Of a stretch of 64,000 nucleotides of DNA, positions 2,346 to 19,527 are shown one piece after another. The position numbers and the translations under genes are program-made. The notes under the pieces were generated by a model. It had not been told where the DNA came from and did not search any database. It saw nothing but the letters and a program-made list of their open reading frames with translations. Source of the DNA: an uncultured archaeon (GTDB lineage: Archaea; Asgardarchaeota; Thorarchaeia; Thorarchaeales; Thorarchaeaceae); the NCBI GenBank assembly GCA_964473825.1, contig CAYYQL010000002.1, positions 64,001 through 128,000 on the forward strand, given 5' to 3'. Position 1 is the stretch's first letter; each line of letters starts with the position of its first letter.

Positions 2346-2906
2346 ATGACTGACAAAGAAGCACCGGACGACAAGGAGGAGTTCGGCGAGGCAGATCTCT
2401 TCGAGGCCATCTCTCACGAAACGAGAATCCGTGCTCTCTTTGCACTCAGAGATGAGCCCCTTGGCTTCGCGCAGCTCAAGAGAGAACTAGGCATCTCGAG
2501 CAGTGGAAATCTACAACATCATATCATGAAGCTCGGAGGTCTCGTTCAGACGGATGCAGCTGGCAACTACATACTTACTGACCAAGGACGAGAGGCACTG
2601 ATTGCGGTGCGCACAGTCAGAAATCTTGATGATCAGCTGGAGTTCAACCTGCGAGCGATGACGTTGATTATGGTGTTCGCCTATTATGTTGTCCAGATGA
2701 ATGTCCCCTTCATACTGGGAACTGTGACTGCCATGACTCCCATCACAGCACTGTTAGGCACTGCGGTCTCCGGAGTGATATGGTATGTGCTTTGGAGAGC
2801 TGCCTTTCAAGTCATGCAAAAGAACCGAGCTTTGCGTGTTCCCGTCGCCTCCTTGGGCCACTCTTGCCTGCTGGTGATGGACAAGCCTCGATGCTCTGTA
2901 TCCTGA
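2346..2906 (+). CDS. ArsR-like winged-helix protein with C-terminal transmembrane segments
   Basis: LFEAISHETRIRAL...FAQLKRELGISSSGNLQHH...YILTDQG is a wHTH pattern, followed by two hydrophobic helices; ATG at 2346 preferred over the ORF-track start. Confidence 0.8.
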   Translation: MTDKEAPDDKEEFGEADLFEAISHETRIRALFALRDEPLGFAQLKRELGISSSGNLQHHIMKLGGLVQTDAAGNYILTDQGREALIAVRTVRNLDDQLEFNLRAMTLIMVFAYYVVQMNVPFILGTVTAMTPITALLGTAVSGVIWYVLWRAAFQVMQKNRALRVPVASLGHSCLLVMDKPRCSVS

Positions 2907-3348
2907 CCTCGGTGATGAGCCGTACCGCAATTTCAGTGGTTCTGAAACCTACTACACGCGGCTTGAAGAAGTTCAGTTTGTCATCGGGCACATGAGCTTC
3001 TGGTTCGACAGCTGGTCTGGATGGACTGCGTTGTCAATCTAACCACTGGAGGTCCGTTCTACTACCAGGACTGGACATACGATTACACCGTCCATCCAAA
3101 CTACATGCCCAATGGCTTTTCTCTCCTATCAGCGGTGTTCCTTGTTGGATGGTGATGCATTCATTCCTGCACTTCGTAGAGCTCTCAACAGAGGTGATTC
3201 TCTCGTCTTGGATCGCCCTCTTTGAGTCCAAGAAGATCTATAGAATGGTGTGGCAGGAGGTAGTTCTCAAGATTTTAAAAAAGGTTAGATGGCTGTCCTA
3301 TCTCCCTGCCAAAATGCCTATATACCAAACAGCAATGAGGGCCTCATA

Positions 3349-3425
3349 GGGCCGATGGCTCAGCCCGGTAGAGCGACAGGCTCTTAACTTGTTGGTCGCG
3401 GGTTCGAATCCCGCTCGGCCCGCCA
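3349..3425 (+). tRNA. tRNA-Lys (anticodon CTT), CCA encoded
   Basis: Cloverleaf: GGGCCGA/TCGGCCC acceptor, GCTC/GAGC D stem, ACAGG-CTCTTAA-CTTGT anticodon arm, GCGGG-TTCGAAT-CCCGC T arm, G73, CCA. Confidence 0.97.
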
Positions 3426-3550
3426 CCTGTTCTTCAGGAGGTACTCCTCACTTCCAATTGTTCTCCGTAATTGATGGAACCCAATACCTGCTAAGCCACC
3501 AGTCGTTGATTGTCTTATGGACTAGCTGGTCCTCCCAGCAACGACACTGG
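3426..3550 (-). ncRNA. candidate omega/reRNA-like guide RNA overlapping the 3' end of the TnpB-like gene
   Basis: Three predicted hairpins (3499-3508/3539-3550 spanning the stop codon; 3452-3459/3469-3479; 3436-3440/3444-3448), located where TnpB omega-RNAs are encoded; boundaries inferred. Confidence 0.4.
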
Positions 3551-5678
3551 GTTTTCTCATATCAACTTCAATGATGTTCCGCGCCGCGTTGACATCAGCA
3601 TGGAAGTATGCAGCGCAGTTCTCACAGTAGAAGTATTCCCCGCCCTTGTACTCCTCTGTCGACCCTTCGCACTTCACCCTCACCCCTGTCTCCCCGCAGA
3701 TGTGACATTTTCGAGATGTCCATGCTGGACTCACCGTCCAGACGGCGCCGTAGCAATGCCCAAGAGCCTGACGCATATACCGCACGGTCTCAAGCACCTG
3801 TGACCACAGGTTGAACGACAACCGCCAGGATAGGTCCCCGTAGCCCTTGGGCGGCTGGTAATTCTTCAGATTCTCGAAGTACAGGGTCTTGACTCCGTGC
3901 CTCTCGCAGAACCAGACGGCCCTTGAGGCAATCTGCCGAGCTATCTCACGATCGAGTCGTCGAACCTTCTTCCAGATGGCATCCAGATGTCGCTCCTTCT
4001 TCCTGAGGGGGCCGGGTCGAGGATAGTCTTTATCGTGCTTGCGCTCCCAGTTGTTGCGCATGAGAGCAACCCGTGAGGAGAGCGCCTTTGTCTGATGCCT
4101 GAGGAGGTTGCGTTTCCTCACCAGCTCGTCAAGAGAGACAAGCTCATCCACGTAACCCTGACCGTTCCGCACCGAGAGCACGATGGGCACACGGATGCCA
4201 CGATCTGCACCGGCCTTCCGCGTATACTCGCGTTCCCCAATGACTTCATCGACCATCTCCTGAGTGGGTGGGAGGAAGGGTATGTCCAGGATGACCCGGT
4301 GACCACGCAAGAGCAGAGCGGGTGGACCACAGGTACGGGACTCCCTGAGTCGCTGCACCTTCTCCTTCAGTTGTGCCAGCTTCTCGGGGTCGGCGTTCTT
4401 GCGGTTCTTCCATCTGTTCAGCTGATAGACGGCATGCTGAAGCTCGATGGTGTTGGTCAGCTGCTCGTGCTGGTCCTCGTATTTTCGTGCTCGAAAGCGA
4501 AGTTTCTTTGCTCTCAGGTGCTTGCCCTGAGCCTCCGCCTCCGCTGCCCTTACTCTGTCCTCTCTTGCGGCCCGGGGTAGCCAATCAAGGAAACGAAACG
4601 CAAGAGTCCGCGTCTTGTATGGAGAGGTCTCATGTGTTTCTCCCTCCATGTGCTCAGGGAGCTTCAGGAAAAAGAGGATCTCATCTTCCCTGTTGAGGTC
4701 CCGAGAGTACCAGTATCCTTGACTGGGAGTGTTCTCCGTGCTGGCAGAGAAGTCCTCCGTATGGGAGTACATCCTGGGAGTGGCGAAGGGGTAGCCCTTC
4801 TTGTGCCAGTGACGGAGCCGCCACTTGGCAGTTGTAAGGATGCCTTTTGCTGTCTGTTCTTCCTTGAGATACCTGCGAATCCGTCCCCGCTGGTAGGGAC
4901 GAGTCCCAAGCGGTTCTCCTCTCTTCTCGAGAATCGAGTGGTCCAGTCTCCGGCGGAGCTGCTTGAGGACCGAGAGGCTGTAGTAGAAGCCTGTCCCGTT
5001 GTTCTTGGTGGACTCACACGCTGCTCGGACTGCCTTGGTCAGGTCGCTTGCGATGTACCGGTTCTTCAGCAGCCGGATCAGGTCGGTCTCGTTCTCACAG
5101 AGATACTCGATAGCTGTCTTCATCAGCTGTCGTCGCAGCCAGTTGGACTGGATGATGCGCGCAGCATGCTCCAGCGCGTTTCGATACAGGCGTTCGAAGC
5201 ACTGCTTTTGGATCTCAGGGTGACTCCTGTATCTCACAGAGTCCTCGTTCTTGAGAAGAGCGTAGCCCTGTCTGGGATACGAGGCCAGCTCCTCGCCGAG
5301 AAACGCAAACCGTCCCTTGTCAGCATACACTCGTTCAAGAACCTCGTTCACCAGTGAGACAAACGTCTCGAAATAGGAGCCAAGAAGAGAGAGGTCGATG
5401 TTGTTGACCTTCCGCCCGGTGGCTGCGGAGAGGCGCTCCTGAATCGCAGCAAGTTCACCCCTTCGGAATCGTGGATCTGGCCCCCTTCCCTTCCCCCTCT
5501 TGTTCACCTCGCGATGAACGGAGCAGAGGGAGAACTTGGAGGTCAGGTACTTCAGACCCGTACCGTGGTGCGTTGTTGATGTGACCGATATAAAGTTGTC
5601 ATCCATTGTCTGTTGCTTCTCCGAGGGATCCCTCGTAGCATGCTCCCGGGGATGACGCCGGGCTTCTTTCGTCATCAA
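3522..5678 (-). CDS. tnpB: large TnpB/Cas12-like RNA-guided RuvC endonuclease (718 aa)
   Basis: RuvC-I KAGADRG (D492), RuvC-II LYFENL (E602), SPAWTSRKCHICG...YCENC zinc ribbon, RuvC-III HADVNAARNI (D695); long helical N-terminal region. Confidence 0.9.
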   Translation of the reverse strand: MMTKEARRHPREHATRDPSEKQQTMDDNFISVTSTTHHGTGLKYLTSKFSLCSVHREVNKRGKGRGPDPRFRRGELAAIQERLSAATGRKVNNIDLSLLGSYFETFVSLVNEVLERVYADKGRFAFLGEELASYPRQGYALLKNEDSVRYRSHPEIQKQCFERLYRNALEHAARIIQSNWLRRQLMKTAIEYLCENETDLIRLLKNRYIASDLTKAVRAACESTKNNGTGFYYSLSVLKQLRRRLDHSILEKRGEPLGTRPYQRGRIRRYLKEEQTAKGILTTAKWRLRHWHKKGYPFATPRMYSHTEDFSASTENTPSQGYWYSRDLNREDEILFFLKLPEHMEGETHETSPYKTRTLAFRFLDWLPRAAREDRVRAAEAEAQGKHLRAKKLRFRARKYEDQHEQLTNTIELQHAVYQLNRWKNRKNADPEKLAQLKEKVQRLRESRTCGPPALLLRGHRVILDIPFLPPTQEMVDEVIGEREYTRKAGADRGIRVPIVLSVRNGQGYVDELVSLDELVRKRNLLRHQTKALSSRVALMRNNWERKHDKDYPRPGPLRKKERHLDAIWKKVRRLDREIARQIASRAVWFCERHGVKTLYFENLKNYQPPKGYGDLSWRLSFNLWSQVLETVRYMRQALGHCYGAVWTVSPAWTSRKCHICGETGVRVKCEGSTEEYKGGEYFYCENCAAYFHADVNAARNIIEVDMRKPSVVAGRTS

Positions 5679-5873
5679 CAGTACACCTCTCTCTTGTGTG
5701 GCTCAGAAGTTATAATCTCATAATCCGTTATAAAGTTACCAAGCAAGATTGCTTCTTGTCGGCTTAAAAGGATTATTAGGCTTTTTTACTTAAAATAAAG
5801 GCTTATGAGAGAATTTTGCTTCTTACAAATAGTCTAGAATATCTATATAAATAACCATGACCAATGGATAGAA
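5679..5873. promoter_or_regulatory. AT-rich divergent promoter region shared by the TnpB-like gene and the 1555-aa gene
   Basis: TATA-like boxes TTATAA (~5710, ~5728) and CTATATAAAT (~5844); TTGCTTCTT occurs twice. Confidence 0.55.
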
Positions 5874-8800
5874 GTGTCGCGTCTAGGGAGTTCAGGGAAA
5901 CCAAGCCAGATTCTGGCCCAATCAGTCATGACTGGGCTTGCTGCCTTAGTCAGACTGGCGCAGGCTCGAGGTAACTCCCAGACCCAGAAGTATGTCAACT
6001 CCATGACTGAGGTCTGGACTAGTGCGAAGAAGGAGCTGAAAGAAAATCAGGTCTTGAGCCCCCATGACTTCTCTTCTGTCCAGAATATCGAACATCTCTT
6101 GCGTCAGAGGTGGCTGGACATAATCTGGCACAGCACGAAACGGTACGGCAATCGTGAGTTCAAACGGATATACAGCTGGCGAGAGGGAAGTGTGGGTCCA
6201 CTGAATGGTCTACTGAACTATGCGGGAGCTCGTCTCCGAGATCTCGCTACAACTCACTACTCCTTTCCCGACCCGCAGCACTATCTCATCTTGCAGTACT
6301 CTGACGGTATCAAGACAGTCGTGCCTCAATCAGCCATATCAGAGGATGTCCCTAAAGATGTCGCGAAGAAGTATTGGCGAGTCGGCTATTCTGGTGACTC
6401 CAAGAGTCCACGTTTCTTGCTCTCACACCCTACACTTCCAGAACTCGATTTCGTAGACATGATCCGCGGACACGTACAAGAGCTCTGCCGACAACTCTTC
6501 ATCTACAACGTTCCGCGAAACGAGGCCCACCGATACATCCGCCTTCTTGTTCACAGACTCAAGCCCTTCCTGGACTGGTTCTATTCTCAAGGCGAAATAG
6601 GGCGAAAGGACTTCTATCCCGATGGAGACAGAGAACTGAGGGATATTGTACTCGAGGTACGGGCCGTGTATGGGCGTCGGGCTGGTAGACGAGAGCGTCT
6701 TTCCGACCAACTTGAGTGGAAAGACACGGCCCCTCTCACAGTAGAGTTCCTCAAGGCTCATGCAGAATCACTCTGCAATGGCTCGACATCGGAAGAGATC
6801 AGGGATGCTTGTGATAAAATCCTCGGCTACATCAATTCGGAGTATATTACCGAGCCTGACTTGCAGAAGCTCGAGGACCAGATTTCTGCCATCAGCCAAC
6901 GCGAGGGAAATGACTGGCACCGGGTGCTTCTCTCAGTCTTCCATCATCCGCGATCTCTGAAGTCGGTACTGTTCGCCGGGGACTCGATGTTGGAACGCCC
7001 TACAGACAGACAGTTCTTCGCTGAGGTGCCCATCCGTTCAAACACGGGCCATGGCAAGGCAGACTTGGTGCTCTTTGTTCGACGAAGTGTTGGACAGCGC
7101 ATGGTCTGGACTCCCGTAATGATTCTCGAACTCAAGACGAAGACCGCCTTCGACTACAACCTATACTGGATGCGACCACGGACGAAGAAGAACTACTCTG
7201 TTCCGGTGTTACATGGCTGGAAGACACGACTGACGCCCAAGGATTGGTCGACCATATCGACCTCCCTGCCCATCAAACGGACACGTGAACAGCTGGCGCT
7301 CTATGAGAAGATACTCCTTCGTGAGTACAGACAATTAGTACCTCAGGATGCATTTGCTCCCCGTGAGCTATGGAAGGGTGTCGTCATTGTTGACACGGCA
7401 GAGAGCTACGGGTCGATATTGGATGCTCTTGAGGGGATGCTTTCCAGCCTCCAGGCAGACCCAGCAGGCTTCGTTTCTACAATGGGGTGGACCTCTCACA
7501 GGTTCAAGAAGTCGGGAGGAGGTGACCGAATAGCCCTCCTCAAATCTCCCTGTTCGGGGCCCGTAGGCGTACTGCGAGAAGCTGTCATGGCAGATAAGAT
7601 CAAGTTAGACGATCCCTTTGAGCATCGGATCGCTGACGAACGCACTCTCACGCAGTATATCTCTGTTTCCTCAGCCACCTCTGGAGGAAATGCCGCTGCA
7701 TGGCATGCAAAGAACTGGCACCTCTTACATCACATTGACGAAGTCGTGGAACAGTGTCCCTCTACTGCCTCCGTCTGGTGGCTTGACTTGTTGGGAAGTC
7801 TTCCTGAACATCTGCGTAAACGGCGTTTCGGCCTGGACGACAAGTCATCGGATTTGCTCGAGAATATCACGTTCCTAAATCTGAGCAATGAGGTCGAGTC
7901 GTTTCTCAAAAGGAAATCAAACATCGTGCAGAGCCTTACCACCATCCCTGGGCCGGATAAGACAGAACACGTAATCATCATAGATGGCTGGGCGGACCTG
8001 AACCGGATGACTCCAACCTTGCAGAAGGAACGGCTCTTAGCTCTCGAATACGCTATCCTTGATACACTACCTGACAGGAATGTCAACATCATCTGGGTGG
8101 ATAGTGGCGTGAAAGGCACAAGGATGAACGAAACCTACCAACGGCCGTGTCTTGATGTTCTGCCCTATGACTCTCCTAGGCGTTTCCAGTTGGATGAGGT
8201 CATCTGGAATATACCCACTGCTCCCAGAGTATTCGGGTGGCAGACTCCCTATGCCGATGAGAAACGGATAATCGTTCAAGATACACCGACGAGTGCTCCT
8301 CCTTGGACCACTATGATTGAGGTGCCCATCCTTAGGAAGTGGGCGCGGAAGTTTAGGGGCGGCCCAAAACGCGACAAGATAGTGGCCGAGGAAGTCATCA
8401 TGGAAGAGCTAGTCACTACGCAGTCGATGTACGGACGAAACATAGTACTCGGGGACATCCAAGGTACAATCTCCTACCTCACAGAACAGACAGTCCAAGA
8501 TCTCCAGGCCGAGGCGATGACTGTCTCGCCGGCTCTTCTTCGCCCGAGGGACGAAGAAAGCATTGCCTTGGTGGCTGAACCGGAGAGCAAAAAGCACTCT
8601 TTCTCTAGTCGGTTAGTAGAGAAGGCTGAGGGGACATCGCTAAGAGAACGACTTCATCTCTGTCCGATTCATCCGCCTCCTAGTCCAAAACGAGCAACTG
8701 AAGCAAAGATGTATGCAAATCCTCTGGGTATCCCACGTCACTGGTATCACAAGACAGAGAGAGAAACTGAGGCTGAGAAACACTACACAAGGAAACCTCC

Positions 8801-10541
8801 CCTCTACGGGAAGAGTGAACTGATCTTTCTTGATAGTCCCACTGCGCGCAGGAGGGAGATCAGACGGTTACGAGATGCGGCGTGGTTTCTGAAACGCCTG
8901 TTCCCTGTGCATGACGACATGCATGGCCTGTGTGGACAGGTGTATTCACTCTGTGAAGACGCCCTAGATAATCCTGATGAGCCTGATAGATATGTTGGCG
9001 TACTTCTCCAAGTCAGAGACCTCATCATCCGTCATCCCAGCCGAGCTCGGGCTTGGCAATTGATTGAGCCGTATCGCGAGTTGGTAGGGGAGGTTCTCGG
9101 TGCGGAGAATCGTCTGCTCCTTGCCGATATCCGCCGTGAGAATCCAGATATCCTTTCCCTATATGGGAACAATCTCCTCATGGGAATCATGGCTGCATTG
9201 GCTAAGACGGTTCGTGATGAGGGGCACTCGGCTGCGATTTCCCTCTGGGAATCTGTGGTTGAATGGCTACCGTATCAGATGGGATTCGCCCCGGTTCAGG
9301 CATCTCAGGAGAGAATCCAGTCAGTGTACGACTTTCAGACGATCTTCGCAAATCTCCTCTCGCGTGCGGGATACCTTACAATGAAAGACCCCCAAGTGGA
9401 AGACCATATGGACGAGATAGCCTTGCTGCCCGCCATCTATAGGCCAGGGCTTCTAGTGGGCAAAGAAGACCATCTTTGGTTCCTCTTCGAACGCCCAGAC
9501 GGTCAAGCTGTCTGTGGTCTTATGAGAGAAAGACAGGAGAGGTTACGTTTGGGATTCCAGTGGTGTTCGAGCAATCCAGCAGAACTCAGTGATAGTGCAC
9601 AAGAGCTGCTTGACGCATCTTGCCTTTGGATCGAAGAGTCACTAGCCGTGACCAATGTAGGCGGTCAAGAGATTCTATGGGGATGGAGTCATGATGAAGA
9701 TGAATGGGGGCTCGTTGGCAGACTTGACTACGGAAGCCACCAAGATTCAGAGGGGGTCCCCTCTCTCTTGTGGGTTCGGCTCTCCCCTCTTTCTATGAAA
9801 ACGACACTTAATCTAGAAGAGTGCCCCATTGGAGCACCCATACACAGTCTTGAGAGATTTCATCCAGTGCTGGAGAGGCTTGCGGGGCAACAGCATAGAG
9901 TGATATCTGTCACATGTGAGGTGACCGTGGACTTGAGCCAAGAAACCTATGTTGTCAGGTGCAAATCATCACGGGAGCTGTATCACGAGTTCCTAACTCC
10001 GCGAACCAAGGAGGTTGTGGCTTTTCTTCGGTCAACTGCCCTCAATGGGCGCAGTGTCACTAACGAAGAGGGCGCAATCCTGACATGGGACCACCTCACT
10101 GATATTGAATATGGGTATGCTGGAAGCGGAGAGGAATGGTTCAGCCTCTCATTTCTGAAACCGCTGGTGCACCGCAGTCGTTTCTTCGAGAGCTATGCCT
10201 ATCCGGAGAATGCGGAACATCTTCTCTCTGCACAAATGGGTCCCCCCGTGACCATGCACATCTGTTATGATAAGGGAATCATGGTTATGCATCGGTTCCT
10301 ACATCCTGTACTTACTGTCAGGTTAGATGGTCTGCCCGAGAATTCACATCTGAAGAAACTTGAGGGGGAAAGAATGAACATCTATGACGTGGCCTTGCTT
10401 GCAGAATTGGAGCAGTTGATAGATATTTCAACAGGATCAATCCATCCTCTAGAGTTTGATGTGACTGCAATCACTAGCGTAGGATTGCCCGTGAAACTTG
10501 AAACCAGTCGCCTTGCCAACCTTCTTCTGTATAGAAGGTGA
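5874..10541 (+). CDS. giant multidomain protein with a RecB/Cas4-like PD-(D/E)XK nuclease domain and a degenerate P-loop-like domain
   Basis: Uninterrupted 1555-aa ORF; AEVP(E384)...GKADLV(D397)...ILELKT(E419/K421)...EQLALY(Q473-Y477); later SSATSGGNA and HVIIIDGW resemble degenerate Walker A/B. Confidence 0.7.
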   Translation: MSRLGSSGKPSQILAQSVMTGLAALVRLAQARGNSQTQKYVNSMTEVWTSAKKELKENQVLSPHDFSSVQNIEHLLRQRWLDIIWHSTKRYGNREFKRIYSWREGSVGPLNGLLNYAGARLRDLATTHYSFPDPQHYLILQYSDGIKTVVPQSAISEDVPKDVAKKYWRVGYSGDSKSPRFLLSHPTLPELDFVDMIRGHVQELCRQLFIYNVPRNEAHRYIRLLVHRLKPFLDWFYSQGEIGRKDFYPDGDRELRDIVLEVRAVYGRRAGRRERLSDQLEWKDTAPLTVEFLKAHAESLCNGSTSEEIRDACDKILGYINSEYITEPDLQKLEDQISAISQREGNDWHRVLLSVFHHPRSLKSVLFAGDSMLERPTDRQFFAEVPIRSNTGHGKADLVLFVRRSVGQRMVWTPVMILELKTKTAFDYNLYWMRPRTKKNYSVPVLHGWKTRLTPKDWSTISTSLPIKRTREQLALYEKILLREYRQLVPQDAFAPRELWKGVVIVDTAESYGSILDALEGMLSSLQADPAGFVSTMGWTSHRFKKSGGGDRIALLKSPCSGPVGVLREAVMADKIKLDDPFEHRIADERTLTQYISVSSATSGGNAAAWHAKNWHLLHHIDEVVEQCPSTASVWWLDLLGSLPEHLRKRRFGLDDKSSDLLENITFLNLSNEVESFLKRKSNIVQSLTTIPGPDKTEHVIIIDGWADLNRMTPTLQKERLLALEYAILDTLPDRNVNIIWVDSGVKGTRMNETYQRPCLDVLPYDSPRRFQLDEVIWNIPTAPRVFGWQTPYADEKRIIVQDTPTSAPPWTTMIEVPILRKWARKFRGGPKRDKIVAEEVIMEELVTTQSMYGRNIVLGDIQGTISYLTEQTVQDLQAEAMTVSPALLRPRDEESIALVAEPESKKHSFSSRLVEKAEGTSLRERLHLCPIHPPPSPKRATEAKMYANPLGIPRHWYHKTERETEAEKHYTRKPPLYGKSELIFLDSPTARRREIRRLRDAAWFLKRLFPVHDDMHGLCGQVYSLCEDALDNPDEPDRYVGVLLQVRDLIIRHPSRARAWQLIEPYRELVGEVLGAENRLLLADIRRENPDILSLYGNNLLMGIMAALAKTVRDEGHSAAISLWESVVEWLPYQMGFAPVQASQERIQSVYDFQTIFANLLSRAGYLTMKDPQVEDHMDEIALLPAIYRPGLLVGKEDHLWFLFERPDGQAVCGLMRERQERLRLGFQWCSSNPAELSDSAQELLDASCLWIEESLAVTNVGGQEILWGWSHDEDEWGLVGRLDYGSHQDSEGVPSLLWVRLSPLSMKTTLNLEECPIGAPIHSLERFHPVLERLAGQQHRVISVTCEVTVDLSQETYVVRCKSSRELYHEFLTPRTKEVVAFLRSTALNGRSVTNEEGAILTWDHLTDIEYGYAGSGEEWFSLSFLKPLVHRSRFFESYAYPENAEHLLSAQMGPPVTMHICYDKGIMVMHRFLHPVLTVRLDGLPENSHLKKLEGERMNIYDVALLAELEQLIDISTGSIHPLEFDVTAITSVGLPVKLETSRLANLLLYRR

Positions 10542-10851
10542 GATTCCTGTTGCTGGAATATTGGAGTCGGACTTACCCGTCCGTTTCGCCTATCTCATCA
10601 ATGAACGAGTAATGTGGATTGTTTGCCCAGAAGCGTACCTCTCAACTTCATGTGGCCAATGATGGTTCTCGATATATGCTTGCCAACATCGAAAGAAAGG
10701 TTATCAGGAGTGATCTCTTTGCGTGATTGAGATAGCATGTATGGCATGTGCGCTAGGTGGATTGATAGCCGTCATAAGATTGGCGATGTAGTTATTTCGA
10801 TTAGCTCGCGGAATGCCAGACAACTTGCAGACACGTGGCATCTGAAACCCA

Positions 10852-12729
10852 ATGGCTAGCCTAGGATATGATTGGTATGCGGTGGAACCCTCATCAGTTT
10901 GTCTTCTTGTGTGGTTCAAGGGAGGAATGGTTATGAAAGGAACAGAAGAAGTGTTTCGCCAGCGCCAGTACTTCGAGTTTGTTGCTCATATGAAATGGGG
11001 CTGGGAATTCCAGCATCTCTTCGAGCGGTTGATGATGAGAACTGAACCCGGCTTTATCCCAGTTAGACCACAGGGACGCTTAGGCGATTGGAAATGCGAT
11101 GGATACTCACATCGGACAAGTCGTTTCTTTCAAGTATATGCCCCAAGATTCACCAAGTCAAAGGTAGCCGTACAAAAAGCAGAAGAAGACCTTGTTTATG
11201 TACTCGAAAACTGGCCTGAAGATACAGCTCCATTACGCGAGTGGATTTTTGTATACGGCCATCATGATGTATATCCTGCTCTACGTACAGAGATTCTCAA
11301 GATTGCCCAGAATCGTGGTATCAAAATCATCGAGTGGAACCTACAAGATATTTGGAACAAGTTTCTGGAACTGAGTCGAGATAGTCGTCTAGCGGTACTA
11401 CAGATGCCCGGAGAATGGCTCACCGATGATAGTAGAAAGCTCGACCAGATACTTTCTAGATTGCCAGAAGCCCAAGGAAAAGAAAGCCAAGAAAAGAAGT
11501 CTTGGACATCTGTCCCCATACAAAGCACGCCGTCATACAGGGTGACCATAGATGAAACAAAGGGAGTTGATGGCACATTATGGTTTTTGTTCGAAATGGG
11601 GATCGAGGTGAAAGAATTCCTGGTTGAATCTTTGGACAAAATTCATCGGGAATTCAATGAATTATGCTCTTGGGGGAGAAATAAGAGCTTCCAGTGGCTT
11701 CACCGATCCAATGAAACCCTCTTGAAGGGGCATTACTGGCGTGATGATATTGGGTTTCTAACCACAACTCACATCAGAAAGCTGTCCAGTGCATCCTTTG
11801 AGCTGAGTTGTTCTCTTTCTAGAGCATTGGATGGTCACTGGCTATCGCAGTCACTTGTCGGGCTTCTTGGTAAGACCCCTGTTTTCCCTCTTGAGGAGAA
11901 TACGATAGTAGATGGCGGGAGAATTCTCATCAAAGATCCAAAGAAACCCCATCTAACGATTTTGGTGAATCTGAAAGACCTCTATGCTGGGATGATTGCC
12001 AATCCGAAGTACGAAATCAATTTTCAATCAACAGATGCATCTATAACTGAGTATTGTACATCCTCAGGTCAGAGGGTATTATCCTTCCATATTCGTTCTA
12101 ATCTAGGCAGTTTTGAAAGAATCGCTCAGATAATAGGGCCTAATGTAATTCAGCCAAGTGAAACGACTTCTTCAGATGTTAGAGCTTTCGACGTAGGTTG
12201 GAACGGAGACGGTCTTGAGATTCGGATATGGATTAACGCAGCGGAACCTGATGGATGTATTCAAGACTGCACATGTTGTCCCCTATTCTTGAAGGGCTGT
12301 AACAACGCCCATTATTGGCAATCGGTAAATCTTAAACACCTCACAGAGGAGCTCGAGTATGCATCTGTGTTTCTGCCGGCTGATTCTGAGGCGGAGCTAT
12401 TAGAGTTGGTTCGAGAAGAGATGAGTGACACCTTGCGAGTCATCTTAGGCAAGAAGGAAAGGGAAAAAGTTTCATCGCTGTTCAGACAGATAGCAGATGC
12501 TCGCGCGAAATTGAATGAACAGTTCTCGAAATTGCTAGATTACTGCCGACGAATACACCTGATGACCCCAAGAGAGCGCCGAAATGTATCTGATCTTGCA
12601 CGGGTTGTAAGGCATCGAATAGAGCGAGGCGGCAAGTTAGCAGATCCTCGCGTTATTGGTGCGAACCCAAAGTACATGGATTTGGAAACGTTTGATTGTC
12701 TAATGGAGGACTACGGCGTCGTTTTCTAG
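10852..12729 (+). CDS. protein with an N-terminal restriction-endonuclease-like domain of the ABC-3C/Lamassu effector type; frame stays open past the TAG to 13005
   Basis: EFQHLFERLM...FIPVRPQGRLGDWKCDGY...FFQVYAP motif; likely start ~10928-10934; 91 further sense codons follow the TAG. Confidence 0.65.
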   Translation: MASLGYDWYAVEPSSVCLLVWFKGGMVMKGTEEVFRQRQYFEFVAHMKWGWEFQHLFERLMMRTEPGFIPVRPQGRLGDWKCDGYSHRTSRFFQVYAPRFTKSKVAVQKAEEDLVYVLENWPEDTAPLREWIFVYGHHDVYPALRTEILKIAQNRGIKIIEWNLQDIWNKFLELSRDSRLAVLQMPGEWLTDDSRKLDQILSRLPEAQGKESQEKKSWTSVPIQSTPSYRVTIDETKGVDGTLWFLFEMGIEVKEFLVESLDKIHREFNELCSWGRNKSFQWLHRSNETLLKGHYWRDDIGFLTTTHIRKLSSASFELSCSLSRALDGHWLSQSLVGLLGKTPVFPLEENTIVDGGRILIKDPKKPHLTILVNLKDLYAGMIANPKYEINFQSTDASITEYCTSSGQRVLSFHIRSNLGSFERIAQIIGPNVIQPSETTSSDVRAFDVGWNGDGLEIRIWINAAEPDGCIQDCTCCPLFLKGCNNAHYWQSVNLKHLTEELEYASVFLPADSEAELLELVREEMSDTLRVILGKKEREKVSSLFRQIADARAKLNEQFSKLLDYCRRIHLMTPRERRNVSDLARVVRHRIERGGKLADPRVIGANPKYMDLETFDCLMEDYGVVF

Positions 12730-13024
12730 GCGATTTGCTCAGACACTGATGGAGTTCTGCAACTGTTTCGAGGAAGACCATTCAAGGAAAATCGGGAATA
12801 TCTGAACTCCCTCCTTCCCTCCATTGCGGAAATAAAGGACCAGTATCTTGGACATTCCACAGAGCTATCGTACATTACAAGTTGTACGCCAGAGATAGTA
12901 GATTACGACTCGCTGGGCGTTGATTTTCTACTGGCAAATTCGTTGGGCCTCATGAAGAGTGGAGGCAAGATAGACAATTCCTCTTGGACTTTCGACAGAG
13001 ATTAAAGTGGTTGGGTTCAGATAA

Positions 13025-14638
13025 ATGTCGGAATGCCAGAAGAAATTCTTCTTTCAGATCATGTGGGGAGTAGTAATGACGAAATCCCAGTTCATTGTAG
13101 AATATACACATCCACGGTTTGCAGCAATCATGCCAGCGGAACAAATCTTGACAGTTGGAGATTTGGATGGCGATTTATGGCACTTCTCTGATGGCGATAT
13201 AACAACGGCAACTTTCTCCGATTTAGTACCTCCAGGTTCGGAACAAGGCTACGTTGGCTCGCTGTCTATCAGCCTTGTAGGTCTTGAGGTTCCAGAGATT
13301 GTGTATGAGTCTACTCGGCGCATAGATGTAACCGATATTGGCAGCTATCTGTTGCCTCTTCCTACAGCGAAACTGAGAGCAGAAGTCACTCTTGTGGATT
13401 TGGACAAGAGAGTCCTCGAAACCCTTAGATGGTATAGAACTGTCGCATCTGAGAACGGGATTGGCGCGCCACAGGCATCTATTGATGAGATGATTGAGAA
13501 ACTAAAAGAATGCTTCATAGAAGACCCATCTCGATTGCCTGAGATGCTGTCAGAGTATCAGCAAAGCGAAAGGCGTTTCAGGTTCCTTGCGAGGAAAGCA
13601 CGGGAAGACCCAACATCACAAGCAGTCGATGCTTTGCTGATTGAAAGACCTCTAGATCCCCTCGGTATGGGTAGCCAGATTGTTAGGGAATTGCCCGGGA
13701 TTATAGAAGCTTTGGATCCTCAGTCTCAACAAGAAGCGATAGATATGCTGGATGATTTGAAGAGAAGAATCCTGTCAACATCAATTCAGAAGCCTGACAA
13801 TTCAGAAGAATACGATGTTGCATTGCGACTGAGAGAAAGCCTCCGGATTCAAAAAGCGCTGCGAAAGTTTGAAGACGAAAGTACGAGACTGCCTAACAAC
13901 GTTGACCCGGATGCAACAAAGCAGTTTGCATTTGATTTCTTTCATCTACTAATGCATTACTGGAATAACGCAATCAGATATCTCAAGTACGAGAAGTCAC
14001 AGCATTGGATGAGGGAGTATCCAGAGTATGCAGCCGGTCTTTTCTATGTCAGAAATCGTGTTTCACTGGACGGCGAACACATTCTCCCGCATGTAACAGC
14101 TCACGTTAGGCAGGAGGTCCTTCGTCATAATCTGATCCAGAGAAGAGAATGGAAGGAAATCGTCCAAGCAACAAGTGACGCAGCACGCCTTGAGAGATAC
14201 ATGCTAGACTGGACGGTTGAGGGTATCCTCTCCCAGGCCCTCTCACATCTCACAAAAGGAGAGCTTCTTCCGCCGATTGTATTGGGGGGAGTTGCTCTAG
14301 AGGAGGCGATGACCAGAGCGCTGTTTCACGTGAATCCCGACGATTATGACAAGAGGGGATTGGGTCTGAAGATAAAGGACGTCCATAGAATGATAGGACG
14401 CGAAGCTCTTGGGTATGAGAAGAGTCAGTGGAAGAAGGACTGGAATCTCCTAAACAAGGGCTCAAAGGAGGAGGGGACGGGATTGGTTCAGATCAGGACC
14501 AGACTGCAACACCCCCAGATTGGATTAGAGAAGAACATCCCTTCAAGGAAAGATGTTGCTGAAATGATTCTGGCTTGCCAACGAATGTGCAATGCTTTAC
14601 TCAAATACGATCGTCACAGGTGTAGCGAACTTGCCTAG
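13025..14638 (+). CDS. protein with a C-terminal HEPN-like RNase domain
   Basis: GGVALEEAM helix followed by an R-x4-H motif (RTRLQH, 14495-14512) and a terminal helix. Confidence 0.6.
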   Translation: MSECQKKFFFQIMWGVVMTKSQFIVEYTHPRFAAIMPAEQILTVGDLDGDLWHFSDGDITTATFSDLVPPGSEQGYVGSLSISLVGLEVPEIVYESTRRIDVTDIGSYLLPLPTAKLRAEVTLVDLDKRVLETLRWYRTVASENGIGAPQASIDEMIEKLKECFIEDPSRLPEMLSEYQQSERRFRFLARKAREDPTSQAVDALLIERPLDPLGMGSQIVRELPGIIEALDPQSQQEAIDMLDDLKRRILSTSIQKPDNSEEYDVALRLRESLRIQKALRKFEDESTRLPNNVDPDATKQFAFDFFHLLMHYWNNAIRYLKYEKSQHWMREYPEYAAGLFYVRNRVSLDGEHILPHVTAHVRQEVLRHNLIQRREWKEIVQATSDAARLERYMLDWTVEGILSQALSHLTKGELLPPIVLGGVALEEAMTRALFHVNPDDYDKRGLGLKIKDVHRMIGREALGYEKSQWKKDWNLLNKGSKEEGTGLVQIRTRLQHPQIGLEKNIPSRKDVAEMILACQRMCNALLKYDRHRCSELA

Positions 14639-14857
14639 GAGACCCCTTTGGTCCTTCGGTGTCTTCTAACATAGATGAGATGTGAATCAGGAAACGAGTT
14701 TGTTCCTGTTGAAATATTCTACATGCTGATCGCAGGCGATAGATAGAAATCAGTGTAACTATTCATATTCGTTTGAGTAGGAAGGGGATGTCAGAACAAA
14801 CGAAACAGAATCTCAAGCGACTGCTAAGAACCATAGAGAATCGAATCGTTTAGAGAT

Positions 14858-16075
14858 GTGCAAGTTTCACTTGCGGTTTTTACCCCAAGAGAAGAGGATC
14901 CGCAATTTGTCTATTCAATAGTACGATTCCTCAATCACGATGAACCTCATAGGAACGAGCTATACGACTGGGATAGATTCAAAGTAATTCACACTGTCAT
15001 CAGCACCGACGATGCAAAGAACCTGATTGAGCGATTATTCAATGAAAACGTCTTTGTCTTGAGAGATCGGGATTCCACGGAAGAACGAATGCTAATTCCC
15101 ATGGAATGCAATCTTCATGATATTCGTGATGTTGGAAGTCAAGAAAGCTATGGCTATGCGAAACACGATTGGCCGTCACTCTTTGCAATAGCTGATGCTC
15201 GAAACGAACCCTCTGGAGAGATATGGCATTCCTATCTATGTGCCATTGGACAGCCTCTGTTTCCGAGTGTGCAAGAGGGAGTCAGAACACTCTTTGGTTT
15301 CAGTGTTGACGAGAAATGGGGAATCAGAAGTAGGTTGGAAGTAGTCGTACCGGACTTCCGGGCGAGAATCAGGAACTTCGTGATTGAGGGCATAAGAGTA
15401 CGAATCGAAGTAGATGTAGAAAGACTGACGCTTGAAGATGTCCGGCTCAAATTATACAGCAAAGGCCGTAAGAAGCGATTCAATTCTGACGACATCAGAC
15501 TAACCGGCAACATTCACACTTGTACACTTGATGAGGAACCCGTGATGCTTGAGGCGTGTATACTATCTGTAGTTGACGGCAGTCTTGTTGATAGAGTGAG
15601 TTATGATAGGCGATACCCTTCAGGGATCACACCCCTCAGAATGTATGACACTCGTATGGCTCTAGGTCTAATCTCTGAAGGTGAGAATAGACATGTAGAG
15701 TTCAAAGAGAAACTGAATACCCAAAACCCCTATGAGTTTCTTGAGAGTGTTGTGGCATTTGCCAACACCAAAGGGGGGCAAATTCTTTTGGGCGTTAACG
15801 ATAGAGGTGAAGTGAGAGGCATAAGAAAGGACTACTCGGAAACCATAATCAATCTGATTCATTCCCATATGAATCCCCCCATCGAACCGAACATTCAGCA
15901 CGGAATAGTCATAGAGGGGCGGGAGATAACAATCGTTGAAATCCCGGAGGGCGGTGCAAAGCCCTATTGGCTCAAGAATCATGGATCTTATGTCAGAAGA
16001 GGGGCTACTGACAAACCCATTTCGAGAACCGAAGCAGAGCAATTATTCAAGAATCGAGCTGGAATAGACTTCTAG
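14858..16075 (+). CDS. Schlafen/AlbA_2-domain protein (C-terminal), probably 5'-frameshifted from an original start at 14788
   Basis: GENRHVEFKE...VVAFANTKGGQILLGVND...YVRRGATD AlbA_2 motifs. Confidence 0.85.
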   Translation: MQVSLAVFTPREEDPQFVYSIVRFLNHDEPHRNELYDWDRFKVIHTVISTDDAKNLIERLFNENVFVLRDRDSTEERMLIPMECNLHDIRDVGSQESYGYAKHDWPSLFAIADARNEPSGEIWHSYLCAIGQPLFPSVQEGVRTLFGFSVDEKWGIRSRLEVVVPDFRARIRNFVIEGIRVRIEVDVERLTLEDVRLKLYSKGRKKRFNSDDIRLTGNIHTCTLDEEPVMLEACILSVVDGSLVDRVSYDRRYPSGITPLRMYDTRMALGLISEGENRHVEFKEKLNTQNPYEFLESVVAFANTKGGQILLGVNDRGEVRGIRKDYSETIINLIHSHMNPPIEPNIQHGIVIEGREITIVEIPEGGAKPYWLKNHGSYVRRGATDKPISRTEAEQLFKNRAGIDF

Positions 16076-16167
16076 TTCCATCTATGACTTTGGATATGAT
16101 GCCGAATATTCCTATACGCGCTCTGCACCAAAATCTGACTATTGATTTCTTTTGCGTCCCTTTTCTT

Positions 16168-16968
16168 CTAAGGGTGCCAATATCTTGCGCTACACCTTTT
16201 TCTGTAACGGAACGCCCACTTTTGAAGGCCTGAGGGCAATGGTTCAAGTGAGAAGTAGGAATGGTAATAGCTATTGCATATGGTGAAATCGAGAAACTGA
16301 TCGCATGAGGGGCAGCTGATTTCAAGACCGTCACATCGTTGGGACATGTGAGCAGAACTTGCCCGAATGTTGAGAATGGGAATATCGGATTCAATGTAAA
16401 TCTCAGTTCCACAGAAAGGACATTTGCCCACGACTTCAATCCAGCCATAGGGTTCCCAATCTAAAATAGGTCCAGAGGTGTCAGTTTCCGCATCTATCCA
16501 AGGGTTGATTTGTTCATAGACTGCTTCTGCTGTACGAAAGATGGCTTGAAGATCATCATCGCTTTGGAGTCTACTAACGAACCGATCAAGATCACAAATC
16601 ATACCTTCATCCCGATAAATCAGGTCCATCATCGCACTCTTGGCGCATCCTGATTGTTCAGTGGTTACATAGCTCTTTACGAGTTCGAAGTGATCGTAGA
16701 CATCCAAACCCATTTGGTTCCCTCTTCCCTTCAAGTAGCCAAGTTTAGCCATCGCACTTGCCTTATTCTCGAACATGCTCAAACCAAGTATGACTCTATC
16801 GATCTGGCTCCTATCAGATTCATATCCATGAAACTCAAGGAACTGCTGGTAGGCAACAACGCCGTGCTCAAAGGGCCATTGAGCATTCCAGCCTACGTCC
16901 GGAAATGGGAGGGCGACTACTGAGAAATCATTGGAATAGGCATCTGGGAGAATTTGTGCTAGTGCCAT
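16168..16968 (-). CDS. hypothetical protein with a C-terminal zinc ribbon
   Basis: 266-aa ORF with CPFCG...CPSCD. Confidence 0.6.
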   Translation of the reverse strand: MALAQILPDAYSNDFSVVALPFPDVGWNAQWPFEHGVVAYQQFLEFHGYESDRSQIDRVILGLSMFENKASAMAKLGYLKGRGNQMGLDVYDHFELVKSYVTTEQSGCAKSAMMDLIYRDEGMICDLDRFVSRLQSDDDLQAIFRTAEAVYEQINPWIDAETDTSGPILDWEPYGWIEVVGKCPFCGTEIYIESDIPILNIRASSAHMSQRCDGLEISCPSCDQFLDFTICNSYYHSYFSLEPLPSGLQKWAFRYRKRCSARYWHP

Positions 16969-17089
16969 ATGGGGTAGAGTGAATGTGTCTTCTCCGGGAG
17001 AATCGCCCTTGGAAACTTACCTCCCCCCCTTGTGTTCAACTCGTACAACAGCGCATTGATTAGCCGAGTTTGCGTTGAACCGTGAAACG

Positions 17090-18096
17090 GAGTGGCAACT
17101 ACTTCCCCCACAAAATCTCGATGAAACATCGGTCGTAGTAATCCTCAATTGTGTCGGCCATATCAAAGGTGACCATGTTTTTCAAGCTCAATTTCTTCTC
17201 TTCCGCCTCTCGAAGGGCGACCTTGAGAAAAGTTAGGCTGTTTCCACATTGCTCTTCAATTCCTGAAGCCAGTCAAGGCACTCGTCACCGCTTGACCAAG
17301 GCATATCATGGCTTTGCCTTTGACAATACTTTGTGACTATTCCCTTTGCTGTCTCCTCAAATGCGGTTTCCTCTAGAAGAAAAAACACAATCTCATCTGT
17401 ACATCTCTCTCTGGATGGTCTTCTTCGCCAATCCTCTTCGTCTGCTCTAACACTTGCATTTGTACAACGAGCTATGAAGGGCACATGGATGCCATCTCCA
17501 AACCAATTCTTCTTCTCTGTCAGTAGATGCAGAAACAACTTCGTATCAAAATGCACGTTGTCGATAATTGCCAGTGCTTTTGCCCTTCCGAAAAAAGGCT
17601 CGGAAAGCGATTCGAATACTTGGTGGAGCCTCTGTGCAGGATTAGAATAACCTCCAGAAGCTGCAGCCCAGTAGAATACGAAGCTCCAATCATTCTTTTC
17701 GGTCAGAATACGATAACCAAGATGCTGTGCCAGCGTAGTCTTCCCCAGTCCAAGAAGAAACCTTCTCGGCCCGAGGTGGCTTTCCATTCCTCATTCGTTT
17801 CAAGCCCTATATGTTTCTCCCGAAACTGCGTAAGTAGGGCAGTTTCCTGTTTGAAAAGCATTACTGTCACATGAGAGATTGGCCATAGAGACCTCGATTA
17901 ACCCCTCACCGGCCCACTCGTTCGCCTCTTCTCGCTTTCTGGTTATAGAGATTTCGGAATACTCTCTTTCAAAATCTACAGCATAATCGCGAGAGTTTGT
18001 GTGGACGCCCATGATTAAGAGAACTCTTCGATGACTACAAGATAACACAAGTGAAGGGATTTCAAGGTATTCGGAAAAGACTTTATTGAAACGCAT
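17090..18096 (-). pseudogene. fragmented STAND-like P-loop NTPase
   Basis: GLGKTTLAQHLGY (Walker A remnant), LAIIDNVH (Walker B) and CGNSLTFLKVAL lie in different frames separated by stops/frameshifts. Confidence 0.6.
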
Positions 18097-18111
18097 CCCT
18101 TAGTAGATGCA

Positions 18112-19359
18112 GTGGCAGAGGGGATGAAACTTATGGATGTCGAGAAGCTTCTAAGAAAAGGTGAGTCTCAAGAGGTTGAATTCAGAATTAAGTACGACAA
18201 GTCGCGAGAGGGGCGAAGGAACTTGGCCGACATAGTTGCTGCCTTTGCAAATACTGATGGTGGGACCATCATCTTCGGGGTTGAGGACAGTGGTGAGGTC
18301 GTTGGTTTGCCGCTATCCGACATTGATCTTTCACAAATCAAGAACCATATCGAATCATTTCTTGATCCCGTTCCTGAAATCCGATTCAGATTTGAAACGT
18401 TTGAGAAAAAACGGCTTGGAATTATCGAAGTCGACAAATCGAAACAGACTATTACATCTCGAGGTGGCAAACCACCGATACGAAGAGGGACAGCCACGGT
18501 ATACAAGGACGTAGAATACATCTACAAATCACAGAGGGAGGCGCAAAGACGTGCTATGTTCATCATGGTTGCCATCACATCAGTACTGATGGCTCTTGCT
18601 CTAGGTTTGATAGAAACGATTCTTGTCGGAGTATCAATCCGTTTCTTAATGACTATTATGATGTTCACCGTGGGCTTTCTACTACCCCTTGGCTACTCTT
18701 TGATTAAGGCTGAAACGAAATACTCAGCTGAAGCCTCAAGAACTAGAATCCATGCCTTTCTAGGGAAATCAGCACCGCTCGTTGCCATGTTTATTGTGAT
18801 TCTTGAGTTTGCTATTGCATATGTGTGGCTGTCATTTGGCATGAGCCAGCTTGGGTTTCTAACACTATCAAATCTAGCGATGTATCTTATTCTGGGCGCG
18901 ATTGACTTGGTTCCATCGAACAGACTGGCCCAGTGGTCTGGCCTGTTTTTAATTGCCATTCTAGCAGGATTCAGCCTAGCGACAATGCAAGATGCAGAAA
19001 CTCTTCCTAGCATCGTTGTTGAGCTGAGCGGTGTCTTTGTTGGCCTTCTTGGTGCGTTCTCACTGGGCGAAACTTGGAAGGAGATTGAGAACAGAAGAAG
19101 GGGTCGAGATTTAGAGCTACTACTAATCGAGGAGTTAGACTCGATTCAAAACTCCATTCTCCAGAATACGAACCAATCGTTACAATATCCCATATGGGAT
19201 GCAATAACCTCAGGAGGTGACCTGCTATCTATTCGCGGGGTTATGGTGACGAAACTGAGTAGAGCGTATCAAGCCATATCAACATACATCTCTCAGCCGA
19301 CGAGAGAGAACAAGAACACAGTCTTGAACCTGATCTCCGATTTGACCAGATCCAATTAG
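18112..19359 (+). CDS. Schlafen/AlbA_2 domain fused to a multi-pass membrane domain
   Basis: GESQEVEFR...VAAFANTDGGTIIFGVED...IRRGTAT followed by about 6 hydrophobic helices. Confidence 0.85.
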   Translation: MAEGMKLMDVEKLLRKGESQEVEFRIKYDKSREGRRNLADIVAAFANTDGGTIIFGVEDSGEVVGLPLSDIDLSQIKNHIESFLDPVPEIRFRFETFEKKRLGIIEVDKSKQTITSRGGKPPIRRGTATVYKDVEYIYKSQREAQRRAMFIMVAITSVLMALALGLIETILVGVSIRFLMTIMMFTVGFLLPLGYSLIKAETKYSAEASRTRIHAFLGKSAPLVAMFIVILEFAIAYVWLSFGMSQLGFLTLSNLAMYLILGAIDLVPSNRLAQWSGLFLIAILAGFSLATMQDAETLPSIVVELSGVFVGLLGAFSLGETWKEIENRRRGRDLELLLIEELDSIQNSILQNTNQSLQYPIWDAITSGGDLLSIRGVMVTKLSRAYQAISTYISQPTRENKNTVLNLISDLTRSN

Positions 19360-19527
19360 TCCACTAACGAAATAGTCAGAAACCTCATTCTCTTACCCAT
19401 TCAACTAATACTTCCTAGGCCATCCTTATCTTCTCCTTTACCGTTTATGTCTTGAAGTCTACTGAGGAGTTGAATCTCATCACTGGTGTTGCTTATATGA
19501 CTCCCTTCCATATCATAAGCGGTCAGA

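Follow-up and report, generated by a model that had tools for sequence, protein, structure and literature searches.

A tnpB-like gene on the minus strand (3522–5678) converges on a tRNA-Lys(CTT) gene on the plus strand near the start of the window, the 64,000-nt stretch of DNA from a metagenome-assembled Thorarchaeota genome (95.7% complete, 4.4% contamination) that was analysed here. This arrangement raises the question of whether the sequence between the two genes encodes a guide RNA for the TnpB protein and, if so, where its scaffold ends and at what its guide is aimed. The initial annotation had proposed an omega-RNA built from three hairpins, with a guide abutting the 3' end of the tRNA. 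The explanation that we favour, to which we assign a probability of about 0.75 as a whole, is that this stretch is where an IS607-type TnpB element, itself non-autonomous, has its right end, and that a conserved scaffold there belongs to an OMEGA system with a tRNA-derived guide (minus strand, 3502 to ~3483), which probably homes on tRNA-Lys.

The product of the tnpB-like gene (P0001, 718 aa) is predicted to be an enlarged TnpB/Cas12f-like RNA-guided nuclease, and is encoded without an adjacent tnpA. Its C-terminal 230 residues correspond to a Cas12f1-like TNB domain that passes the Pfam cut-off (PF07282, 41.3 bits versus 26.3), and the protein also matches TnpB, Cas12f and Cas12u models, all below their curated cut-offs (NCBIfam guided_TnpB at E 2.7e-15 and 56.6 bits, for a cut-off of 100; NCBIfam IS607_TnpB at 10.3 bits, for a cut-off of 350). 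A PDB sequence search with P0001 returned no match. The top PDB matches that Foldseek found for its AF2 model (pLDDT 74.6) were all Cas12f, Cas12g, Fanzor2 or TnpB (E 7e-10 for 8j3r, 6e-6 for 8h1j and 1e-5 for 8iaz), and Cas12k structures were also among the matches of the AlphaFold model. The translation contains GADRG, FENL and HADVNAARN motifs, and both the RuvC triad (D492/E602/D695) and the zinc-ribbon cysteines (C658, C661, C685 and C688, arranged as CxxC...CxxC) are unchanged across 37 homologues. On these grounds P0001 appears to be a TnpB/Cas12f-type nuclease with an intact catalytic triad, and its family a distant, enlarged subfamily of TnpB. Homologues of ~710 aa are nearly all labelled Thorarchaeota, and the family was matched in 41 of 87 genomes of the order (E 1e-30 or better), often several times per genome and in many cases as fragments or at contig ends; the window's own genome (G000) carries two further full copies and three fragments. 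This abundance of several, frequently fragmentary copies per genome is the pattern of a mobile family.

To compare the 3' ends of these genes, 33 copies were anchored on the TnpB C-terminus. A nucleotide block of ~50 nt in a short form, and up to ~75 nt in a long form, is kept in these copies before a terminal AACGG, and the sequences after that motif are unrelated from one copy to the next. The block is kept whatever the reading frame, since the stop codon precedes hairpin P2 in some copies and elsewhere a TGA lies inside the terminal motif. In the window, which has the short form and lacks hairpin P3, the scaffold core occupies 3503–3551 on the minus strand, as supported by covariation in the 33 copies and by a covariance model (R1) that recovers 3502–3591 with an E value of 5.6e-14. 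The core comprises hairpin P1 (3551–3547 with 3538–3534), hairpin P2 (3532–3529 with 3522–3519), which encloses the TAG stop of tnpB (3524–3522), and a pseudoknot of 7 bp in which the P1 loop pairs with the final bases of the element (3545–3539 with 3508–3502). P1 is 100% paired across the 33 copies, with a closing pair that is UA in 18 and CG in 15, while 95.7% of the pseudoknot cells are paired and one of its positions is occupied by CG (14), GC (12), AU (2) or UA (1). For the whole structure 92.9% of cells are paired, versus 27–41% when the partners are slid; double-sided changes occur in 13 pairs, and the observed values were reached by 0 of 500 shuffles. Both RNAalifold and explicit pair counts back P1, P2 and the pseudoknot, and folding 3502–3556 yields P1 and P2 with a z of -2.0. 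The numerous G-U pairs that accompany the covariation fit a structure formed by the sense strand.

Two qualifications apply to this picture. P2 and P3 share sequence with direct repeats, which are probable binding sites of TnpA, and some of the covariation in these two hairpins may therefore arise at the DNA level. Upstream, in the part that encodes RuvC-III, a tentative extra helix (3583–3599, minus strand; 3599–3596 with 3586–3583) emerged from RNAalifold and the pair counts, but it is weak, with one covarying pair and disruption in 8 of the 33 copies. Rfam scans returned tRNA matches only (in the window with E values as high as 1 admitted, and at gathering scores in 20 related loci), and no Rfam family, such as RAGATH-18, matched the scaffold. 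This comparison shows a conserved RNA scaffold to be encoded in the last ~50 nt of the element (3551–3503), across the tnpB stop, much as the initial annotation had supposed in placing an omega-RNA over the 3' end of the gene. The first stem that it had drawn across the TAG (GTCGTTG at 3545–3539 with CAACGAC at 3508–3502) does exist and is the conserved pseudoknot; its outer CCAG...CTGG extension, the 3' CTGG of which lies in variable flank, is a coincidence of the window copy.

The same alignment of homologous loci, which had been put forward as a check for covariation and for the boundary between scaffold and guide, places that boundary after 3503. Homology among the 33 copies and 14 gene-less mini-copies stops there, after AACG(G/A). 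The terminus reads AACGG in 26 of the 33 copies and AACGA in the window (3503–3507, minus strand), where the terminal GG expected of IS607 is mutated to GA.

The assignment to IS607 rests on complete relatives of the window copy. Three of them (L083, L084 and L085) encode a TnpA with MerR-HTH and Resolvase domains (Resolvase E 1e-20 to 3e-22), and the layout of the family is tnpA, a reversed giant ORF and tnpB, the tnpA of complete copies following the giant ORF in the orientation of tnpB. Left junctions read GGG after variable flanks in the three complete elements and 13 mini-elements; the left end contains inverted copies of the short right-end repeats (GTCCAA/GTCTAG type), and there are also direct repeats. 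IS607 elements are known to end in GG, to insert at (G)GG without inverted repeats or target duplication, and to carry direct repeats in their ends (PMC6188088, PMC13565253), and their TnpBs work with reRNAs that contain a pseudoknot and with TAMs rich in G (PMC11061315). In the window copy tnpA is missing (its genome holds only a tnpA fragment), and, as in the other copies beside tRNA-Lys, the canonical left end is absent. Together with the mutated terminal GG, these losses indicate that it is immobile by transposition.

The divergent partner of tnpB in the window is the giant ORF (5874–10541, plus strand, 1555 aa). A homologue adjoins tnpB in 18 of the 33 loci first compared, and homologues in the extended loci (L074–L096) reach 1550–1960 aa; the two genes stand head-to-head in most copies of the family, and the giant ORF lies between tnpA and tnpB when the element is complete. 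The 1555-aa ORF had no match in Pfam, PADLOC or the ESM Atlas, and the only PDB sequence match found (E 0.16) was set aside as chance. Its identification as a Cas1 was likewise rejected, PF01867 hitting only the canonical cas1 on contig C19 of the genome. Earlier work has noted unknown cargo proteins in TnpB elements of the IS607 type (PMC10691335). Between G000 and its sister genome G074, whose orthologous TnpB is 90% identical, dN/dS is 0.11 for tnpB (dN 0.049, dS 0.450) and 0.19 for the giant ORF (dN 0.088, dS 0.456); with these low ratios, both genes are under purifying selection and are maintained despite the immobility of the copy.

In the window's own genome the R1 covariance model recovered six tnpB-linked copies and 14 gene-less elements. 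In each of the latter, which are ~200 bp long, a left end of the IS607 type is joined to a TATA-like box, placed ~100 nt before the end, and to the scaffold with its AACGG terminus; they include C48:11870-11975, C42:15335-15433, C8:350-450, C40:21353-21457, C6:94746-94822, C45:10694-10770 and C3:119518-119622, with seven more, and each has a different flank. Their existence indicates that the scaffold is kept where nothing is encoded. The mini-elements look like stand-alone guide-RNA genes and could be served in trans by TnpB.

Three readings of the right end differ from ours. On the minus strand, a spacer that is not conserved (3426–3482) contains the second and third hairpins of the initial annotation (3479–3452, and AGGAG-TAC-CTCCT at 3448–3436), and the antisense of the tRNA-Lys CCA end begins at 3425, 10 nt past hairpin 3. 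This proximity, and the fact that the hairpins do exist in this one sequence, are what speaks for a scaffold of three hairpins with a guide that adjoins, or extends into, the 3' end or trailer of the intact tRNA-Lys. We consider this very improbable, because the homology of the 33 copies and the 14 mini-elements stops at 3503, because hairpins 2 and 3 are missing from the orthologous locus of G074, and because the distance from right end to tRNA varies between 40 and 115 nt among loci. Neither the entire 135-nt stretch (z -0.99) nor the 76 nt at 3426–3501 that contain both hairpins (z +0.33) folds better than shuffles; a single-sequence fold that is not unusually stable leaves the question to be settled by comparison, and the comparison identifies hairpins 2 and 3 as chance features of a fast-evolving spacer. 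The idea that the 77-nt spacer is a decayed tRNA body, with hairpin 3 as a relic of the T-arm, was rejected as well, since beyond nt 17 it aligns with tRNA-Lys bodies no better than shuffled sequence does (z -1.1 to +1.0). That the hairpins sit between convergent genes would also suit transcription terminators for tnpB and tRNA-Lys. Archaeal termination relies on T-tracts rather than hairpins, and no T-run follows either hairpin on either strand; as they are neither conserved nor in excess of the expected stability, this role is hardly credible.

A DNA-only role for the motif, as an IS607 right end with TnpA-binding repeats and a GG crossover but no guide RNA, has more in its favour: the right-end repeats recur inverted in the left end, as noted above, and short direct repeats and a final GG are usual at IS607 ends (PMC6188088). 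It nonetheless seems to us quite unlikely. The covarying pairs of P1 and of the pseudoknot fall outside the repeats, and the G-U pairs in use would be C-A mismatches on the other strand. The position of the TATA-like box in the mini-elements is that expected for a transcribed scaffold, and an intact nuclease under selection needs a guide. Moreover, the known reRNAs of IS607 TnpBs have exactly such a position and are pseudoknotted (PMC11061315). A scaffold RNA that ends at the right end of the element thus remains our preferred reading of these ~50 nt.

If the scaffold ends at 3503, as the end of copy homology indicates, the guide would be the first ~16–20 nt past the element end (3502 to ~3483, minus strand). 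This candidate guide corresponds to nt 4–19 (to ~21) of a tRNA-Lys(CTT) gene, in the orientation of tnpB. The initial annotation was therefore right to link the element to tRNA-Lys, but the part of the tRNA that it named was not the relevant one: the sequence at the guide position is neither the tRNA 3' end nor its trailer but the 5' end of a second, interrupted and oppositely oriented tRNA-Lys, and between it and the 3' end of the intact gene lie 57 bases that are not conserved. The intact tRNA-Lys(CTT) (3349–3425, plus strand; ARAGORN and Rfam), the sole one in the genome, is inverted and lies 77 nt past the element end, and its nt 5–16 differ from the candidate guide at 3 of 12 positions. 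A search of the window's own genome with the 20-mer guide gave no other match with three or fewer mismatches.

Ten tRNA-Lys-side loci were available for comparison (the window, G074, G082, G081, G031, G053, G055, G069, G071 and G085, the last of which is a scaffold-only remnant). In all ten, an inverted tRNA-Lys(CTT) has its 3' end 40–115 nt from the right end, and the 13–16 nt past the boundary are closely similar. In the TnpB tree, the copies at tRNA-Lys belong to three distinct clades, each well supported. Beside the guide, nothing recognisable remains of the tRNA body past ~nt 20, the other 57 nt being unrecognisable or deleted in the ten loci. Among 20 other loci examined, a tRNA was nearby in only two. 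We then compared flanks and natural tRNA-Lys alleles in a fixed register of 12 positions, for seven tRNA-Lys-side loci and 26 other copies as controls: the seven showed 0–2 mismatches to some natural allele, versus 7–11 for the controls. For the window guide the best natural intact allele has 2 of 12 mismatches, and none known is a perfect match; the G074 guide is identical to the intact G053 allele over 14 of 14 nt. Wherever the resident tRNA is known, 3–5 of the 12 positions separate its allele from the guide. The guides of the window and G031 agree at 15 of 16 positions, although their proteins are only ~54% identical and the remaining spacer is unalignable. Between G000 and G074, 5 of 16 guide positions differ, which is about the neutral expectation (dS 0.45), and four of these five differences fall at positions that vary among natural alleles. 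The comparison establishes the tRNA origin of the candidate guide, and the differences between guides are compatible with guides that track tRNA-Lys alleles.

The other part of the interrupted tRNA-Lys marks the left border of the insertion. At 17908–17959 (minus strand) lies an orphan tRNA-Lys promoter, with a TATA-type box and a 25-nt spacer, followed by nt 1–9 of the tRNA and then by unrelated DNA; G074, G082 and G053 have an orphan promoter with tRNA nt 1–10 to 1–13 near the end of the giant ORF. In element-free genomes the single tRNA-Lys stands head-to-head with a homologue of the gene at 23109–24446, and this ancestral position is that of the orphan promoter in G000 and G082. The split-gene layout that the comparison reveals is one in which 14.4 kb (tnpB, giant ORF and cargo) separate the two pieces of one tRNA-Lys copy near its 5' GGG. 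The two pieces overlap by 6–10 nt across the block, which is not expected of a simple IS607 insertion. The duplicated part at the locus is the tRNA-Lys promoter and 5' end; a duplicated tRNA 3' end, the classical att site, was looked for in the window and none was found. When the locus was compared with empty tRNA-Lys sites (G007, G072 and G058), the downstream DNA was unrelated and no nucleotide-exact empty site was obtained. Independent public contigs span the junction between tRNA and right end without differences, and contigs of four microbial-mat DNA runs, compared over 2500–19500, covered the locus and contained no empty-site or inversion joint; small 'joints' inside tnpB in these contigs come from paralogues. 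A search for RNA runs over 3300–5900 returned none. The neighbourhood of the locus is common to several genera.

The cargo (10852–17787, ~7 kb) lies inside the interrupted tRNA-Lys in the window genome only, and the corresponding place in G074 holds ~100 nt. Its ORFs encode 625, 537, 405 (Schlafen/AlbA_2), 266 and 184 aa, and a Pfam search of the neighbour genes gave no family except Schlafen/AlbA_2. Relative to the conserved flanking host genes, the block at 3349–10471 (7.1 kb, with tRNA-Lys, tnpB and giant ORF) is inverted in G074, which represents another species of the same genus (contig C6; L074 12333–5211). The inverted block is bracketed by inverted copies of the tRNA-Lys promoter and first tRNA nucleotides, and recombination between these promoter/tRNA-5' repeats probably caused the inversion.

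How such a system might work can be sketched by analogy with ISDra2 and IS607 TnpB, from which we infer RNA expression, a TAM, cleavage, homing and the escape of the resident allele. The tnpB transcript would be processed into an omega-RNA with the 3' guide 3502 to ~3483, and the resulting RNP would recognise a G-rich TAM, here the GGG of the tRNA, followed by the tRNA-Lys 5' sequence. It would cut tRNA-Lys genes that lack the element, and recombinational repair could then restore or spread the insertion. The resident intact tRNA-Lys would escape because at least 3 of the 12 TAM-proximal positions differ from the guide. The right end just before the guide reads ACGA/ACGG, close to the proposed GGG TAM, and protection from self-cleavage is unaccounted for. 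The homing or maintenance at tRNA-Lys envisaged by the initial annotation is thus a reasonable proposal, provided that the target is moved from the 3' site to the 5' end of the tRNA-Lys gene; nothing supports its other suggestion, an RNA acting antisense to the tRNA trailer.

A real scaffold need not imply present targeting, and the tRNA-like guide could instead be the fossil of an old insertion into a duplicated tRNA-Lys, with the locus retained because TnpB or the giant ORF serves another purpose. The immobility of the copy, which has no tnpA and a GA terminus, the absence of a perfect target from the genome, the roughly neutral divergence of the G000 and G074 guides, and a neighbourhood common to several genera, compatible with vertical descent, are all in keeping with such a relic. 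Yet the first 13–16 nt have stayed tRNA-like in three clades while the other 57 nt became unrecognisable or were deleted in the ten loci, and the differences between the guides of different genomes coincide with differences between natural alleles; on balance we regard a fossil as somewhat unlikely. A bolder extension of the homing model is possible, if doubtful, namely a lineage with a quasi-fixed guide aimed at the first ~16 nt of tRNA-Lys(CTT), in which the GGG of the tRNA serves as both transposase target and TAM, and which behaves as a gene drive. The common tRNA-Lys allele would be cut and the interrupted copy would take over its place, a change made tolerable by an intact tRNA-Lys in the same block, inverted and mismatched to the guide. 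Were this so, tRNA-Lys 5' alleles and guides would co-evolve, the same logic might recur for other tRNAs in Asgard archaea, and the lineage could be a natural intermediate on the way to the fixed guides with which Cas12k transposons target tRNAs.

Among characterised systems, IS607 TnpB with its reRNA (e.g., ISFba1, PDB 8iaz; PMC11061315) resembles the window family in several respects: relatives likewise encode a serine-recombinase TnpA, right ends terminate in GG in most copies and left junctions read GGG, in keeping with insertion at GGG without duplication, a pseudoknotted scaffold lies over the tnpB 3' end and stops at the right end with its guide taken from the flank, and the predicted fold combines RuvC and a zinc finger. 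It differs in that IS607 TnpB has ~390 aa, whereas the window protein has ~715 aa, with a ~300-aa helical region before WED/RuvC, and falls under the NCBIfam cut-offs; its scaffold has no Rfam family, a giant ORF of 1550–1960 aa is reversed between tnpA and tnpB, and the guide of the tRNA-Lys sub-lineage, common to ten loci, is a tRNA gene 5' end. ISDra2 TnpB of IS200/IS605 (PDB 8h1j; PMC8612924) is also an RNA-guided nuclease with an omega-RNA guide formed by the ~16 nt past the right end, and it performs restorative homing (PMC8612924). ISDra2 relies on a Y1 transposase, its ends are hairpins of single-strand DNA and its TAM is AT-rich, whereas the window family has a serine recombinase and G-rich junctions. 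The Asgard aCas1-associated TnpB groups (PMC10691335) share Asgard-specific lineages and a hypervariable, guide-like region downstream of tnpB, but the window locus has no Cas1 and the transposase of its relatives is a serine recombinase.

The nearest parallel to the guide itself is provided by the tRNA-directed fixed crRNAs of type V-K transposons (PMC11406308), whose effector, derived from TnpB, has an inbuilt guide matching a tRNA gene, so that the element resides at a conserved tRNA site. These CASTs, however, combine a nuclease-dead Cas12k with TnsB/TnsC/TniQ of the Tn7 type and leave the tRNA uncut, inserting downstream of it, whereas the window locus has an intact nuclease triad, no Tn7 genes were seen, and one tRNA copy is interrupted. 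The omega-RNA proposed here belongs to a known kind; what is new is a tRNA-derived guide, spanning clades, beside a mismatched replacement tRNA, a combination for which we found no description in the TnpB/IS607 literature searched. The analysis defines scaffold, right end and guide position for an uncharacterised, double-sized Asgard TnpB family, all of which are needed to test the enzyme. It also offers a natural case in which a TnpB that is catalytically intact, judging by its triad, has as its candidate guide the 5' end of a tRNA gene, a cellular sequence that is conserved; three TnpB clades have retained this guide-length piece, whereas the remainder of the interrupted tRNA has disappeared. 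If functional, the arrangement would be one in which an OMEGA system with an active nuclease homes, directed by its RNA, on a tRNA gene and has next to it a replacement tRNA that resists cleavage.

Other copies of the family vary in state and setting. Two full-length tnpB copies in one genome (G043:C189:16131-18278 and G043:C107:169-2316) have one in-frame TAG each. In the window's own genome, an internally deleted element with an intact scaffold (C1:113666-114342) runs from the first 108 codons of an IS607-type tnpA into the last ~125 codons of tnpB, and a tnpB paralogue at C78:2113-4537 (L003) converges on a tRNA-His ~200 nt downstream, its flank being unlike the tRNA-His 5' end. Across the order, the 5' alleles of tRNA-Lys(CTT) (loci L045–L081) form two classes, CCGRTK...CTCAGC and CCAGTGGCTWAG, each with its own promoter type; a TnpB element or remnant adjoins the tRNA-Lys in 8 of 9 genomes with the first class, and the second is mostly element-free.
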